A stretch of DNA of 64,000 nucleotides from Eledone cirrhosa. Lineage: Eukaryota. Below are positions 10,279-18,733 of the stretch, in pieces (position 1 is the stretch's first letter; each line of letters begins with the position of its first letter). Under the pieces are notes generated by a model, which did not search any database, had not been told where the DNA came from, and worked only from the letters and a program-made list of their open reading frames with translations. The stretch is taken from the NCBI GenBank assembly GCA_964016885.1, contig OZ024741.1, positions 131,440,001 to 131,504,000 on the forward strand. Direction: 5' to 3'. Both the position numbers and the translations under genes were made by a program.

Positions 10279-12631
10279 CGTTACTGTGAAATTAGGTCTG
10301 CTAGGCCTTCAGGAATTCCGATCAATAACGTGTGTATATATTATCGTGAATGTGTATGCTATATATATATGTTTGTATGTACGTATATATGTATACACAC
10401 ATACACATACACATACACATTTACACACATACATACAAACAAACATACATACATATATAAATATCCATTTATATATAAAAAGTTATGAAACGAAAGGAGC
10501 TGTGTGGTTACTAAAAACAAGGTTTAGGGTGGTGGTTAGGGCGGAACAGGAGGAGAAAGGAAGAAAGGAGTTTCCATCGTCAGCTGTAATTGTTTCCCGA
10601 TCCCATGTTTCGGCGCTGAATCACAGGACATCGGTGTAGTTCGGGTGCGCCCGAGGCCTTTTATTAATCAAAAGGCCAGGTGGAAAAGGAGAGAGAAAGA
10701 GAGATAAAAAATGGAGAGAGAAAAGGAAAGAGAGGGAAATGAGGAAGAACAGGGGGGGGGGCCTAATAAGAAAGGAATAGAAGTAAAAGTGTGCAGATCC
10801 CATCGTGGGAAGATACAGGTGAAAGAAACAGGCAAAAAAGTAACCGTGGAAAAATAGGGAAAGTAAGTTGTGGCCAACCTGGGAGACTTTAGCCTGGGGG
10901 TCAGCTACGACTCAGAGCTGGTATAATCGTGCTGCCTCTCACATAGACAGGAGAAAGTGGGAGACACGGGCAAACAAAAGTGAGGAGGAGAAGGGAAAGG
11001 GAGATAATCCAGAAGGGTATTTTTACGACGGTGGTAAAAACGTGCCGCAAAGATTGCGGACAGAGAGGCCACCACGGCACGTGTAAACATGTCAACAATC
11101 AAAACCGAACGGATGGATAGAGAAAGAGGGAGAGAAAAAAAAAACGAGAGTGAGGAGGAGAAGGGAAGAGAGAAGGGAGGGTCGATGCGAAAGTGTGGAG
11201 GGTACACAGATCGACCAAAGCAGGTAGGGTCACAGCGGTAAATACAAAAAGTTATGAAACATATATATATATATATAACGAAGGAGTTGTGGTAAGGAAC
11301 CAGATGAAGCATGACGCACCAGAGTACTCAATACTTAGGGTAGTAGAGCGAGTAATAGGAAAATGTATGACCCCGACGGCAGAGCTCAAGCCGTTACGAC
11401 GGCTAAGAAATAGCCGTCAAAACGGCCTGAGTTCTATATATATATATATATATGTGTGTGTGTGTGTGTGTGTGTGTGTATATATATATATATATATATA
11501 TATATAGATAGATATATGTATATATATAAACAAAGAGGGTGTGGTGAGATACCAGATGGACCATAAGGCACCAGACTACTCCATACTTACAGTAGTAGAG
11601 TGGGTAATATGCAAAGTGTCAGGACCCCGACGGCTGAGCTCCGGCCGTTTCGATAGCCGAATAGTTCGGATTTAGCTGTCGAAACGGCCGGAGCTCAGCC
11701 GTCGGGGTCCTGACTCTTTTCATATATATATATATATATATATAGGAAAATGTATGACCCCGACGGCAGAGATCAAGTCGTTTTGACGGCTATTTCTTAG
11801 CCGTCGTAACGGCTTGAGCTCTGCCGTCGGGGTCATACATTTTCCTATTACCCACTCTACTACCCTAAGTAGTAAAATACCCATCTGGATTATCTCCCTT
11901 TCCCTTCTCCTCCTCACTTTTGTTTGCCCGTGTCTCCCACTTTCTCCTGTCTATGTGAGAGGCAGCACGATTATACCAGCTCTGAGTCGTAGCTGACCCC
12001 CAGGCTAAAGTCTCCCAGGTTGGCCACAACTTACTTTCCCTATTTTTCCACGGTTACTTTTTTGCCTGTTTCTTTCACCTGTATCTTCCCACGATGGGAT
12101 CTGCACACTTTTACTTCTATTCCTTTCTTATTAGTCCCCCCCCCCCCCACTGTTCTTCCTCATTTCCCTCTCTTTCCTTTTCTCTCTCCATTTTTTATCT
12201 CTCTTTCTCTCTCCTTTTCCACCTGGCCTTTTGATTAATAAAAGGCCTCGGGCGCACCCGAACTACACCGATGTCCTGTGATTCAGCGCCGAAACATGGG
12301 ATCGGGAAACATTTACAGCTGACGATGGAAACTCCTTTCTTCCTTTCTCCTCCTGTTCCGTCCTAACCACCACCCTAAACCTTGTTTTTAGTAACCACAC
12401 AGCTCCTTTCGTTTCATAACTTTTTATATATAAATGGATATTTATATATGTATGTATGTTTGTTTGTATGTATGTGTGTAAATGTGTAAATGTGTATGTG
12501 TATGTGTATGTGTGTATACATATATACGTACATACAAACATATATATATAGCATACACATTCACGATAATATATACACACGCTATTGATCGGAATTCCTG
12601 AAGGCCTAGCAGACCTAATTTCACAGTAACG
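10279..12631. repeat. Large inverted duplication (about 750-bp arms plus a nested hairpin element)
   Basis: 10279-11026 is the reverse complement of 11872-12631; about 11330-11432 mirrors 11743-11870. Confidence 0.9.
11530..11722 (-). mobile_element. Hairpin mini-element (GACCCCGACGGC family)
   Basis: Palindrome at about 11617-11714 plus about 85-bp shared tail, flanked by TA tracts. Confidence 0.75.
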
Positions 12632-13059
12632 AAAGCATGGAATTTACGAACAGAAATCAAACCAGATCGTATTTAATTCCCAAATGTATAAGAAATCGAT
12701 AGTGATATTTATCAAAAGGATCTGAGTTCGCTCCCGAGGCAGACTGAACTGTCGATAATTTCTACCTTTTTCTTTTTTTTCTTTTTTTATATATCATATG
12801 TGTGTTTATGAAAGCACATACGATATGTTTATGTATAATAAACATACACGAGTCTAGCTATGATTTTTTTAAAAAATCTGTGCTCGTGTCGCAACTATCT
12901 CAGTAGCATTGAGAACAAATTGCCTTAGTTCTGTCTCATTCTGGTATGTATGTCTGTGTCTGGATATATATATATATATATATATATATATATATATATA
13001 TATATATATATATATATATATATATATATATATATATATATATAAAGAAAAAGAGATGA

Positions 13060-14390
13060 AATCGAAAATGCAACTGGAGTCTTATTTTTTTTTAAAATAT
13101 ATATATTTATTTGGTTCCTTTACCGGTTTCGCAGTTCTTCTGCTTTTCAAAAGGTGAGTTGAGATGGAGGGTCTGTGGTTTTTCTCACATCTGGTTGGTC
13201 TCTGAATGTTACTTGTTTTATATGGAAAAAGTGGCTCGAAATGCCAGGTTTTTCGAGAAGTAATTTGATTGGTTTGTCAATAATTATAATAAAGTTCGCG
13301 CCAGTTCGCGTTACAATAGTTCTTCAAATAAGAGAGGAGGGGGGGGGGGGGGTTGTCACAGGTTGTTTTTTCATATATGAGTGTTTGAATTTCTTTTTAC
13401 TTGAAAAAAGGAGGCTCACGAAGGCTTTTTTTTGGTTGGTTATAAATGAAATTTGGCTGTCACGTGAACAAGTTTTCATTACATTTTTGCGCCCTTATTT
13501 GGAAAACTATTCTGTAGTCTTTATAGTGAATGTTATGACAATGGAGAGATAGTGGTCAAGAGAAAAGGGATTGGGAGAAATGTTCTGGTTCAGTGAATAT
13601 GGCCAGCTCGCCGGGGTGTCAGAGTTCAGATTTTCTATTGAAGTGAAGATATGTATGTTTATTTGTGTGCTTGTGTGTGTGTATGTGTATGTGTGTGTGT
13701 GTGTGTATGTGTGTATTGGAAGATGATTCTATTAGTAGAGATGGGGGAGGGAGTTGTGTGTGTGTGTGTATATGGGTGTTATGTGTGTGTGTGCGAGTAT
13801 GTTAAGACGGAGAGAATATATATTTTGTGTGTGTGTATATATATATGTGTGTAGGAAAGTGGTTCTGTTAGTAGAAATGGGGAGGGAGTTGTAGGTGTGG
13901 GGGTTTTTATGTGTGTGTATGGGTGTTATGTGTGTGGGAGTATGGTTAGCATGTTAAGATGAAGAGAATATATATATATATATATATTGTGTGTGTGTGT
14001 ATGTGTGTGTGTAGGAAAGTGATTCCTTTAGTAGGAATATTTTTGAATGAACATATTTTCCTTACTTTTTCGTGTTTGCTGTTGTATTGCCAGTGCAAAC
14101 GTATGTTAAGGTTTATTTAGTTCGGGTTTTTATTTTCTAAAGTAGAAGGTGTTATGTGTGTGTGTGTATGTCATATTGTGGTGTTGACATAATGTATATT
14201 AAACCTTATTTTTGAATAAACATATTTTCCTTATTTATTCGCATTTGTTCTGTTGTATTGTTAGCGCAAAGGTAAAATGGGAAGACTTGGAATTTGGGTG
14301 TCTTATTACTTGCGCAAATGTCTAGATATGCACTTAGTGGTATCTGTCTCGTGGTTGGATCTCGTAATTGTTGGTTATTTTTCATTTTGT
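13060..14390 (-). mobile_element. Penelope-like element 3' fragment (GIY-YIG C-terminus + long 3' region)
   Basis: Minus strand about 14195-14385 reads QQLRDPTTRQIPLSAYLDICASNKTPKFQVFPFYLC..RINKENMFIQK; HHR downstream; flanked by (TA)n. Confidence 0.6.
13117..13154 (-). ncRNA. Minimal type I hammerhead, U3-A8 core variant
   Basis: Reverse complement: CCTT-TTGAAAA-GCAG-AAGAA-CTGC-GAAAC-CG-GTA-AAGG. Confidence 0.75.
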
Positions 14391-14778
14391 AAAAAAAAAA
14401 ACCTCACTTTCTAATATATATATATATATATATATATATATATATATATATATATATATATATATATATATATATATATATATATAAGTAAATGAGGTAT
14501 CGTTTAAGGTAATCCAAGTAGAGGTTATGAGTAATCTCTTCCGTTAATACTTAGAATAAACCCTACCGTATAGCTGATCCGTGTTATTCTTCACATGGTT
14601 ATATATATATCATCATCATCATCATCATCACCGTTTTACGTCCGTTATATGTATATATATATATTCGAAAGTAAGGTTTTTTTATATATCCTATACGAGA
14701 ACAAATATAGGAAAAATAGGTTGGGAATGCAATTGGAGCCTTTAAGAAGGTTTATTTTTAATTTACAATGATTTATAA

Positions 14779-17482: not shown

Positions 17483-17977
17483 CTCCAGAAAACCCCCAGT
17501 TGATGGATGCGAATCCTAAATATAGGGACAATTAAATCTCTCCCAAAGTAACATTATCTCGTGTTATTATTTTTTATTTTTCGCTTTTTCCTACGTTCCA
17601 CTACACACTACACATCTCATTCTACACTCCCTTACATTTCTCTCTTCACCACCGGATTCTCTTACCCGGAGATTTACCCATCTGCATTGTTGAGGCTTCC
17701 AAAACGACAAAAAAAAAAAAAGTATTATTCCACAATGCTTCAAGCAAACTTCAATACTCTTTTATCCATATATATATATATATATATAACAAAAGAGTCA
17801 GGACCCTGACGGCTGAGCTCCGACCGTTTTGACAGCTAGATCCGAACACAAATATATATATATATATAATATATATCTACAATATATATATATATATATA
17901 TGTGTGTGTATGTTTATATATATATATACGTGTATATGTATGTGAATATATATATATATATATATATATATATATAT

Positions 17978-18483
17978 AGTGAAAGAATGAAGAAAAACAT
18001 GGTTGACTGTACAACAAGGGGCTTTATTTCGGGTATTGACAATTGTTTCATTGATCAGGTGAGTCTAGAGGTCGCTAATCGCTTGAAGTTGCGTCACTCG
18101 ATCTCCATTACATTATTTACTTGTAACCAACTCATCAGAATACGAAAATATGTTCGTATTCTGATGAGTTGGTCAGAAGTAAATAATGTAATGGAGATCG
18201 AGTGACGCAACTTCAAGCGATTAGCGACCTCTAGACTCACCTGATCAATGAAACAATTGTCAATACCCGAAATAAAGCCCCTTGTTGTACAGCCAACCAT
18301 GTTTTCTTCATTCTTTCACTATTATTACTCCAAGCATAACCTACATAGGAATTACCGCGAACTCGCTGCTTAACTATGGAAACATCTTGTTGAGTTAAAC
18401 AAAGCCGTACGTTAAAAATATCCACCACGCAGAGTACTCACAACCTCTAACTGTATTACCTATAACGATAACTTGTTACCCCA
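17978..18483. mobile_element. Fold-back element with HHR motif on both strands
   Basis: Arms 17978-18146 and 18153-18320, tail to about 18483; GTATT-CTGATGA-GTTGGTCAG...CTGATCAAT-GAAAC-AATT-GTC-AATAC at 18156-18266. Confidence 0.85.
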
Positions 18484-18540
18484 TATATATATATATATAT
18501 ATATATATATATATATATATATATATATATATATATATAT

Positions 18541-18733
18541 AAGAAAAAGTATGACCCCGACGGCAGAGCTCAAGCCGTTTCGACGGATATTTCTGGACTC
18601 CAGAAATTGCCGTCGAAACGGCTTGAGCTCTGCCGTCGGGGTCATACTTTTTCCTATTTCCCACTCTACTACCCTAAGTATTGAGTACTCTGGTGCGTTA
18701 TGGTCCATCTGGTTCCTTACCACAATCCCTTTG
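18541..18733 (+). mobile_element. Hairpin mini-element (GACCCCGACGGC family)
   Basis: Same palindrome-plus-tail architecture as 15641-15832; flanked by TA tracts. Confidence 0.8.

Follow-up and report, generated by a model that had tools for sequence, protein, structure and literature searches.

Hairpin-plus-tail copies in TA repeats of Eledone cirrhosa as probable miniature insertions of a Penelope-like element

Introduction

For insertions of endonuclease-bearing (EN+) Penelope-like elements (PLEs), a layout is described in which inverted pseudo-long terminal repeats (pseudo-LTRs) are combined with a one-sided tail (PMC3846280; PMC8557442; here and below, statements on published work refer to the sections of the papers drawn upon). 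A TATA box and an initiator within the pseudo-LTR have been proposed for rotifer PLEs (PMC3846280), and transcription starts within the pseudo-LTR in Penelope and in Chlamys-3_cRei (PMC8557442). The transposition cycle of PLEs is called 'still undefined', and self-priming is the sole proposal offered for it (PMC3846280; PMC8557442): palindromes at inverted junctions were read as its product, and it is the model favoured by Arkhipova and co-workers for inverted pseudo-LTRs (PMC3846280). Here we analyse a 64,000-nucleotide stretch of the genome of Eledone cirrhosa (GenBank assembly GCA_964016885.1, contig OZ024741.1, positions 131,440,001 to 131,504,000 of the forward strand; hereafter the window), in which a family of short hairpins with a one-sided tail is embedded in (TA)n repeats, together with its relatives elsewhere in the genome and the PLE from which it stems.

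The hairpin-plus-tail copies are probably miniature insertions of the PLE junction region, consisting of an arm of ~58 nt and a tail of ~80 nt, into (TA)n. Each would have been made anew by double priming on one RNA, at a site at the end of the arm (P1) and a site at the end of the tail (P2); the two complementary DNAs (cDNAs) would run to a common 5' end, the predicted transcription start in the pseudo-LTR, and be joined head to head. We read the mini hairpins as dead-on-arrival insertions from two primed cDNAs. Twin priming of human L1, which Ostertag and Kazazian are said to have described in 2001 as a source of 5' inversions, is alike in that cDNA synthesis on one RNA is primed from both strands of the cut target, the resulting products being joined inverted; the second L1 primer, however, anneals at variable internal places, whereas the insertions analysed here show two fixed starts and a head-to-head palindrome with a one-sided extension.

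The features shared with described EN+ PLE insertions are the head-to-head terminal pieces, the one-sided extension, palindromic joins, truncation of the inner 5' ends, the (TA)n target and a putative TATA box and initiator. The mini copies differ from them by the absence of a coding body, by arms of only ~58 nt and by a tail of 80 nt instead of the 30–40 nt described. The layout is known, and the miniature, very abundant form is a variant of it; no description of a miniature body-less form as the dominant product, of the P1+P2 rule or of the common inner end was found in the literature covered; supplementary files S1 and S2 of PMC8557442, with hammerhead calls for each family, may bear on the claim of a PLE without hammerhead. 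The parent element resembles PLEs of the Hydra clade in its single open reading frame, C-terminal GIY-YIG-type endonuclease, DKT in place of DKG and (TA)n target (PMC8557442). It differs from them in having no canonical hammerhead, a structure called universal in that clade, and in a unit length of 3.5 kb against less than 3 kb, its placement being by motifs rather than by a tree (PMC8557442). Non-LTR retrozymes are likewise non-coding derivatives of PLE pseudo-LTRs, presumably moved by PLE enzymes (PMC7229834; 10.64898/2026.07.22.740005), but they are tandem units with active type I hammerheads and circular RNA, whereas the mini copies are single inverted stubs without a complete hammerhead.

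Arm and tail as parts of a Penelope-like element

The family is large and uniform. A 193-nt copy used as genome query gave 1,855 first-look candidates, and all 40 places that were scored matched, 39 of them over at least 189 of the 193 bases at 93–100% identity. With a strict pattern (both inner 13-mers exact and 8–38 nt apart), hairpins were found at no fewer than 13,875 places genome-wide, against 0 for the reversed control, and this stub form is by far the commonest product. All 30 fetched copies have their tail end against (AT)n, reading ..CCTT(T/C)GTT, and 29 have (TA)n at the opposite end, which reads ..AGGAAAAAG..; in the exception, L003, the left arm continues into an inverted tail.

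Right arm and tail also occur at the end of longer sequences. They form the 3' end of a common 355-bp form in L031, L045 and L050, and L043 and L049 share an upstream extension, with which a genome search returned a family of 932 candidates; copies of this family reach more than 1 kb further upstream and end either at the outer end of the arm or at the end of the tail. In the long copies, the right arm is preceded by a 3' untranslated region (UTR) of ~1.1 kb and, before that, by a GIY-YIG endonuclease frame, and the frames upstream of the 3' UTR show VIY..YIG, a CxCX5C linker and CNLC. A 107-aa query from the endonuclease frame gave 54,849 first-look candidates, among them frames 784–789 aa long as well as an array of tandem units repeating every 3,542 bp; the pseudo-LTR organization is also present as a partial upstream repeat in L113. 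In the four open-frame copies that were fetched (L113–L116), arm and tail stand directly before the frame, and the arm alone ends the 3' UTR; hence, the arm closes a unit as its last ~58 nt, and the tail opens the following tandem unit as its first ~80 nt. The two are contiguous in the PLE. A first-pass annotation, made by a model from the letters of the window, had suggested that Penelope material was copied into (TA)n and that a linked GIY-YIG/reverse transcriptase (RT) frame should be sought; the material is indeed PLE sequence, and the frame that arm and tail flank, 784–789 aa long, was found in these same four parent copies.

Read by eye, the parent frame contains the RT motifs FDIESYY and YRDDG in addition to the endonuclease motifs VIY..YIG. 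A Pfam search of the 789-aa frame gave no family match, a sequence search of the PDB with the parent protein gave no match at E<=1, and tblastn related it weakly to those PLEs of the genome that Pfam recognizes (E=2e-4 for the RT core and E=1e-3 for the endonuclease). The nearest Atlas clusters hold cnidarian and ctenophore proteins and are GIY-YIG or RVT_1 clusters (scores 0.96–0.99), a lead only. Among the Hydra-clade motifs, the translation has DKT, CxCX5C (CNCPDRSIC), CxxC (CNLC) and CxH (CKH), with RWR for RWK, and inspection by eye did not find the CCHH arrangement. By its predicted translation, the parent is a 3.5-kb PLE that fits the published protein motifs of the Hydra clade.

Other candidates for the parent were set aside. 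The first 20 loci that match the GIY-YIG Pfam family belong to other PLE families with different 3' ends, and only one of them (L067) lies near a copy, which is unrelated to it; a scan for open reading frames upstream of five arm-only ends found nothing coding. Among these loci (L051–L070) are two or more additional PLE families whose GIY-YIG domain is detected by Pfam and which end in pyrimidine-rich tracts against (TA)n. With 10,596 first-look candidates in the GIY-YIG search, several PLE lineages thus compete for the same microsatellite target. Contigs from two other organisms contain 0.30–0.36 of the sampled words of the parent stretch, and one palindromic contig of 60 nt turns at L113 position 1070; related species may therefore also have the PLE family and its mini hairpins.

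Two fixed ends and a common inner limit

Copies of all lengths terminate against (TA)n at one of two sites, and both ends are common among the long-copy loci. P1 reads ..TTTTTCCT|AT or ..CTTTTTCCT|AT, and P2, 80 nt beyond P1, reads ..CCTTYGTT|AT. The two sites are used together in a regular manner. Among 60 unique short hairpins, 56 combine P1 with P2, one has P2 at both ends, none has P1 at both ends, and three have one side unclassified. Fifteen hairpins that no query had targeted gave the same picture, with 13 P1+P2 and two unclassified, as did the 13 classifiable long two-armed insertions (12 P1+P2 and one P2+P2). Since an independent choice of site would give P1+P2 in at most 50% of cases, the two starts are coupled. 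A head-to-head inversion with an extension at one end only is common to 56/60 short hairpins, 12/13 long insertions and the open-frame copy L113, where (TA)n is followed by a truncated copy in inverted orientation that stops at P2, then by a partial repeat in direct orientation, the frame with its 3' UTR, the arm, which stops at P1, and again (TA)n.

The inner ends of both arms cluster within a few bases of a common limit, in keeping with the reproducible turning point that had been noted in the window. Arm lengths were measured to the inner end in 56 hairpins oriented by their tail, with one mismatch allowed. The modal inner end of both arms lies 13 nt before CCGTCGAAAC, at the A of AGTCCAGAA (11/56 left and 18/56 right arms), and the remaining arms mostly stop short of it. 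The one-armed L145 and the solo arm of the window (Table 1) start at about the same place. In long two-armed insertions, by contrast, the inner ends differ by 18–250 nt in 11 of 14 cases. That short arms have one common limit while long arms stop anywhere is what would be expected for run-off at the 5' end of an RNA.

A TATA-like GGCTATTTA(A/T) is located 27–28 nt upstream of the turning-point A in all three parent subtypes, and this A sits in an initiator-like TTAGTC. The turning point is likely the RNA 5' end, and we infer that this end would be capped, with transcription starting in the pseudo-LTR at the A of AGUCCAGAA. The word depth summed over four sets of contigs rises at least ~15-fold at the turning point and falls ~300-fold after P2, although this is only a rough echo of copy numbers, as contigs cannot show RNA starts. 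Preceding AGTCC, an untemplated G that could be a cap signature is clear in only a few joins (e.g. L009, L018 and one place matched by the strict pattern) and ambiguous elsewhere, and we do not rely on it.

The 355-bp form mentioned above (C1:55.9 Mb, C4:28.7 Mb and C6:10.8 Mb) consists of an unrelated 218-nt body followed by right arm and tail. Its junction, ..CACTGAGGAACTG|..AATAGCCGTC, is near the usual turning point, and the repeat is probably a chimera that arose by template switching at the RNA 5' end and has been copied since.

The same ends speak to the idea of a DNA transposon, either a foldback element or a miniature inverted-repeat transposable element that targets TA. Its long inverted arms and its position in TA repeats, where duplication of a TA target would be invisible, could be so explained. 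The outer ends (AGGAAAAAG.., ..CCTTTGTT), however, do not form an inverted repeat, and only one side carries a tail; the sequence belongs to a reverse-transcriptase element, of which it is the terminal region; and inner-end truncations, chimeras and unequal arms are hallmarks of reverse transcription. We regard a DNA transposon as extremely improbable. The terminal-inverted-repeat behaviour that would have told against the retroelement origin in the first-pass annotation was not found, the outer ends being unlike each other, while target duplication is unreadable in (TA)n.

Double priming and its alternatives

The following sequence of events would account for these regularities. The endonuclease would cut both strands of (TA)n, and both 3' ends would anneal, on one RNA, to the AU that follows the pyrimidine tract at P1 and at P2. 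Each annealed 3' end would prime its own cDNA, so that two separate primings would be served by a single RNA. On the 5'-terminal copy of the repeat, the cDNAs would run off within 58 and 138 nt, and the two would then be joined head to head, the join losing, sharing or gaining a few bases. If the same scheme used the 3'-terminal P1 and the 5'-terminal P2, it would produce the classical layout, as in L113. Because (TA)n is self-complementary, both nicked strands offer the same 3' sequence, and double priming would be natural for an element that targets TA. We tentatively suggest, with rather less assurance than for the origin of the copies themselves, that the thousands of mini hairpins could be a natural record of EN+ PLE integration, with two fixed starts on one RNA, run-off at the capped 5' end and a head-to-head join, and that the same scheme could explain the inverted pseudo-LTR and one-sided tail of all such elements.

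Self-priming would require only one cDNA, which would start from the tail end, reach the 5' end of the RNA, fold back and copy itself into the mirror arm. Palindromic joins are what this snap-back predicts, and 28 of the 56 joins contain 1–5 nt that fit both arms; both arms belong to the same subfamily in the 48 typable hairpins, which it would also explain. Yet the mirror arm stops at P1, which is an independent 3' end of long copies and where a fold-back would have no evident reason to halt. The tail-less left arm is longer than its partner in 23/56 hairpins (shorter in 22/56, equal in 11/56), and would thus contain bases absent from its supposed template unless later trimming is invoked. 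The unequal inner ends of the long insertions argue in the same direction. Self-priming therefore seems to us unlikely. The first-pass annotation had offered a Penelope cDNA that snaps back at a fixed point: the PLE origin and the fixed point stand, and simple snap-back is disfavoured by the P1 end and the longer tail-less arms.

A different question is whether the hairpins were made anew or inherited. In the latter case, the whole 193-nt unit would propagate in the manner of a short interspersed element (SINE) or a retrozyme, being transcribed and copied in trans by the PLE enzyme, and differences at the apex would arise later by instability of the hairpin tip or skipping of the tip by the RT. 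The very high identity between copies (93–100%) and the existence of groups of copies with an identical join suit this idea, as does a variant, detailed below, that is not mirrored between the arms and recurs in copies with different joins. The diversity of the family does not: by eye, the first 50 genomic places of the listing show ~35 distinct joins; for each of the subtypes A, C and D, the hairpins match a long parent of that subtype; and outer-arm variants found in two or more copies are mirrored in both arms. The TATA-like region upstream in the parent is missing from the hairpins, which leaves them no evident promoter, and the double hairpins expected from re-copying (e.g. L150) are rare (1–2/23). 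We judge a self-propagating hairpin to be quite unlikely. A/C hybrids were seen in 0 of 48 typable hairpins (of the 50 listed, by eye) against ~47% expected from random pairing of arms, so both arms derive from one RNA or one source. The diversity of joins argues that most copies are independent products rather than descendants of a master copy, and we take them as such; with neither promoter nor coding sequence, they are by-products and not a replicating family.

Several observations weigh against double priming. At position 55 of the reference arm, 6/43 copies with different joins have T in the left arm only, and at position 57, T is confined to the right arm in 4/43; a recurrent unmirrored variant would fit either a ready-made hairpin that was inherited or a mutational hot spot. 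Joins are also repeated, one being common to 4 of the 50 listed places and that of the window copy recurring in 5 of the 30 fetched copies, which had been ranked by likeness to a query that included the join. The samples are small (56–60 hairpins, 50 listed places) and were partly chosen by similarity, and the measure of arm length over-extends some arms. The putative 5' end at AGUCCAG was placed from DNA joins, and some long copies reach upstream of it (L113 by ~160 nt, L115 by ~50 nt), so that templates longer than the predicted transcript exist. Lastly, the short matches to both arms found at half of the joins would be given by self-priming as well.

Over 13,000 tiny insertions, each with its two ends and its join readable within 200 bases, make PLE integration countable in terms of pairing at the start, stops of the cDNA and added bases.

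The hammerhead-like motif of the arm

The arms were at first described as the 3' half of a hammerhead ribozyme, and their reading is confirmed: ..GTCGAAACGGC..GAGCTC..GCCGTCGGGGTC.., with CTGANGA absent from the arms. The order of GAAA, helix III and cleavage site (CGAAAC-GGC..GCC-GUC) stands; what does not stand is the ribozyme, for which both CUGANGA and a covariance match are missing. Compared with a type I hammerhead (RF00163 and relatives), the arm has GAAA, a short helix, GUC and then a G-rich strand in the correct order, but no CUGANGA, no partner for helix II, no three-way junction and no covariance-model match. The half motif of GAAA, helix and GUC arose in 0.7% (helix of at least 4 bp) to 1.9% (at least 3 bp) of 20,000 shuffles of the arm.

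A split hammerhead, in which the 3' half in the arm would be completed in trans by a parental CUGANGA strand and cut at GUC|GGGG, has some points in its favour. GAAA, a 5-bp helix with a GAGCUC loop and GUC follow one another in type I order, which is infrequent among the shuffles; the Hydra-clade PLEs are reported always to bear hammerheads (PMC8557442); and the right arm of L140 starts exactly at GGGGTC. The right arm begins at the supposed cut in only 1/23 copies, however, and in the hairpin the motif is fully paired with its own complement. As it stands, the idea is close to refuted. CTGANGA was absent from all six copies of the window, from the sense strand of five 3.6-kb parent units and from the 0.8–1.4 kb upstream in two A-type parents. 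A genome-wide pattern for a complete hammerhead upstream of the arm (CTGANGA within 30 nt) gave 37 places, which are unrelated apex variants or chimeras without a common structure.

Covariance searches against Rfam were equally negative for the family. At the gathering score, nothing was reported in the window and none in 20 related loci; at E<=10 over positions 11000–19000, there were 133 matches, no hammerhead among them and instead microRNA-like chance matches to the long hairpins; and at E<=5 on the parent unit, no ribozyme was reported. Eighteen RF00163 matches above the cut-off were detected elsewhere in the genome, so the blank on the copies is not a failure of the tool. Aligned to the genuine hammerhead family of this genome, the arm scores at chance level, 379/1000 shuffles reaching its score. 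The split hammerhead is in our view very improbable; the GAAAC-stem-GUC motif is not part of a working hammerhead and is at most a relic. Two proposals of the first-pass annotation are likewise not supported. A turning point at helix II of a hammerhead has against it the lack of a model match in copies or parent and the five parent units without CTGANGA. The other proposal is a 190-bp element that propagates itself and is cut in trans by half of a parental ribozyme; no parent bearing a full hammerhead was found for it, which is the outcome that the annotation had itself named as refuting, and the diversity of joins also speaks against a master copy. Half motifs of this kind in such repeats should not be scored as ribozymes, and a very successful PLE with Hydra-clade motifs and no hammerhead bears on whether these elements need their ribozymes.

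A hammerhead-bearing family (L117–L132, 16 places, e.g. C4:309200894), with CTGATGAGTCCTAAATAGGACGAAACATTGTC|GGCTAAT and 35–38 bits to RF00163, likewise has two alternative ends against (TA)n, separated by ~100 nt, and includes several head-to-head pairs, which suggests that the two-end rule holds beyond the family studied here. In the window itself, positions 17981–18485 are a second, unrelated two-armed (TA)n insertion, with a near-perfect palindrome of 340 bp (17981–18320) and a one-sided extension of ~165 nt that ends ..CTTGTTACCCC against (AT)n. Each of its arms has CTGATGAG (18161) and GAAACAATTGTC (18250), and a helix II of 9 bp (GUUGGUCAG/CUGAUCAAU) around an insert of ~66 nt and a helix I of 5 bp can be drawn by eye, which makes the arms a candidate for a complete type I hammerhead. 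Rfam does not report this candidate, an unconstrained fold does not contain it, and the palindrome turns ~10 nt upstream of CUGAUGA.

Copies in the window

All six places first named in the window are present and mutually related, and a BLAST search with three of the copies as queries found no further place in the 64 kb (Table 1). Counted as similar sequences there are six; counted as insertions there are four separate ones, one of which is duplicated, plus one solo arm. The three complete copies share the fold-back, the variable apex, the internal GAGCTC and the one-sided tail that had been attributed to them: a left arm of ~55 nt is followed by the apex, by a right arm of ~55 nt that mirrors it and by the ~80-nt tail, the whole lying within (TA)n. 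The arms of the C-type copy match the open-frame PLE copies L113–L116.

Table 1. Hairpin-plus-tail copies and the associated duplication in the window (positions of the window; P1, arm end; P2, tail end)
Feature	Position	Strand	Parts and context
Complete mini insertion, A subtype	18541..18735	+	(TA)n both sides; arm and tail match 3' end of long A-type parents L133, L158
Parts of the A-subtype copy	18541..18735		Left arm 18541-18598 (outer end = P1, reverse-read); join ~18596-18601; right arm ending at 18655; tail 18656-18735, with P2 as outer end
Complete mini insertion, C subtype	15641..15832	+	Arms GTAAGACCCC..GGCTGAGCTCAAGCC; tail from 15754; (TA)n both sides; class P1+P2
Complete mini insertion, B subtype	11530..11722	-	Inverted tail 11530-~11609; hairpin ~11610-11722; (TA)n both sides
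Partial mini insertion	11743..11871	+	Full hairpin and first ~25 nt of tail (tail from 11847); ends where an arm of the large inverted duplication starts
Mirror duplicate of 11743-11871	11278..11435	-	Same private apex ..GGCTATTTCTTAGCC..; full inverted tail, second arm incomplete
Solo arm, B subtype	17790..17850	-	Usual inner start (..TTCGGATCTAGCTGTC..) to P1 end; TA repeats both sides
Large inverted duplication	10278-11023 / 11874-12632		Arms ~750 nt with 95-99% complementarity; three of the six copies enclosed

The partial insertion and its mirror duplicate are one insertion copied twice, because they share a private apex and are located in the two arms of the large inverted duplication. 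In that duplication, ~250 nt on the left (11024–11277) lack a counterpart on the right; the duplication could have arisen by palindrome formation at the TA repeat or as another two-armed insertion, or could be an effect of the assembly. The solo arm is a one-armed product and not a truncated hairpin, and its inner start is also seen in B-type copies elsewhere in the genome. Mini hairpins of this kind explain very abundant perfect palindromes in TA microsatellites, which are prone to mis-assembly and possibly linked to cruciform instability.

Other repeats in the window

Two further RT frames on the forward strand (6004–8508 and 32312–35221; 834 and 969 aa, with a fragment at 8660–9312) match Pfam RVT_1 only. 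By eye, both show a Cys/His motif at the C terminus and a PD..D/ExK-like motif (..RPDIILKD..LIDMSVP..), and their tails resemble (TAA)n; we take them to be an R4/Dong-type non-LTR element with a restriction-like endonuclease. They were considered as parents of the hairpins and rejected: they have nothing in common with arm or tail, their tails are of the (TAA)n type, and they belong to a different retroelement. A repeat of ~200 bp (..GGCGGTGGATTGGCAGTATTGGTAGAGGGTCGGACGCCATGC..), which we would guess to be a tRNA-derived SINE, forms an inverted pair at 9420–9600 and 9960–10140 and is nested in PLE 3' UTRs elsewhere (L072, 1190–1390; L075).

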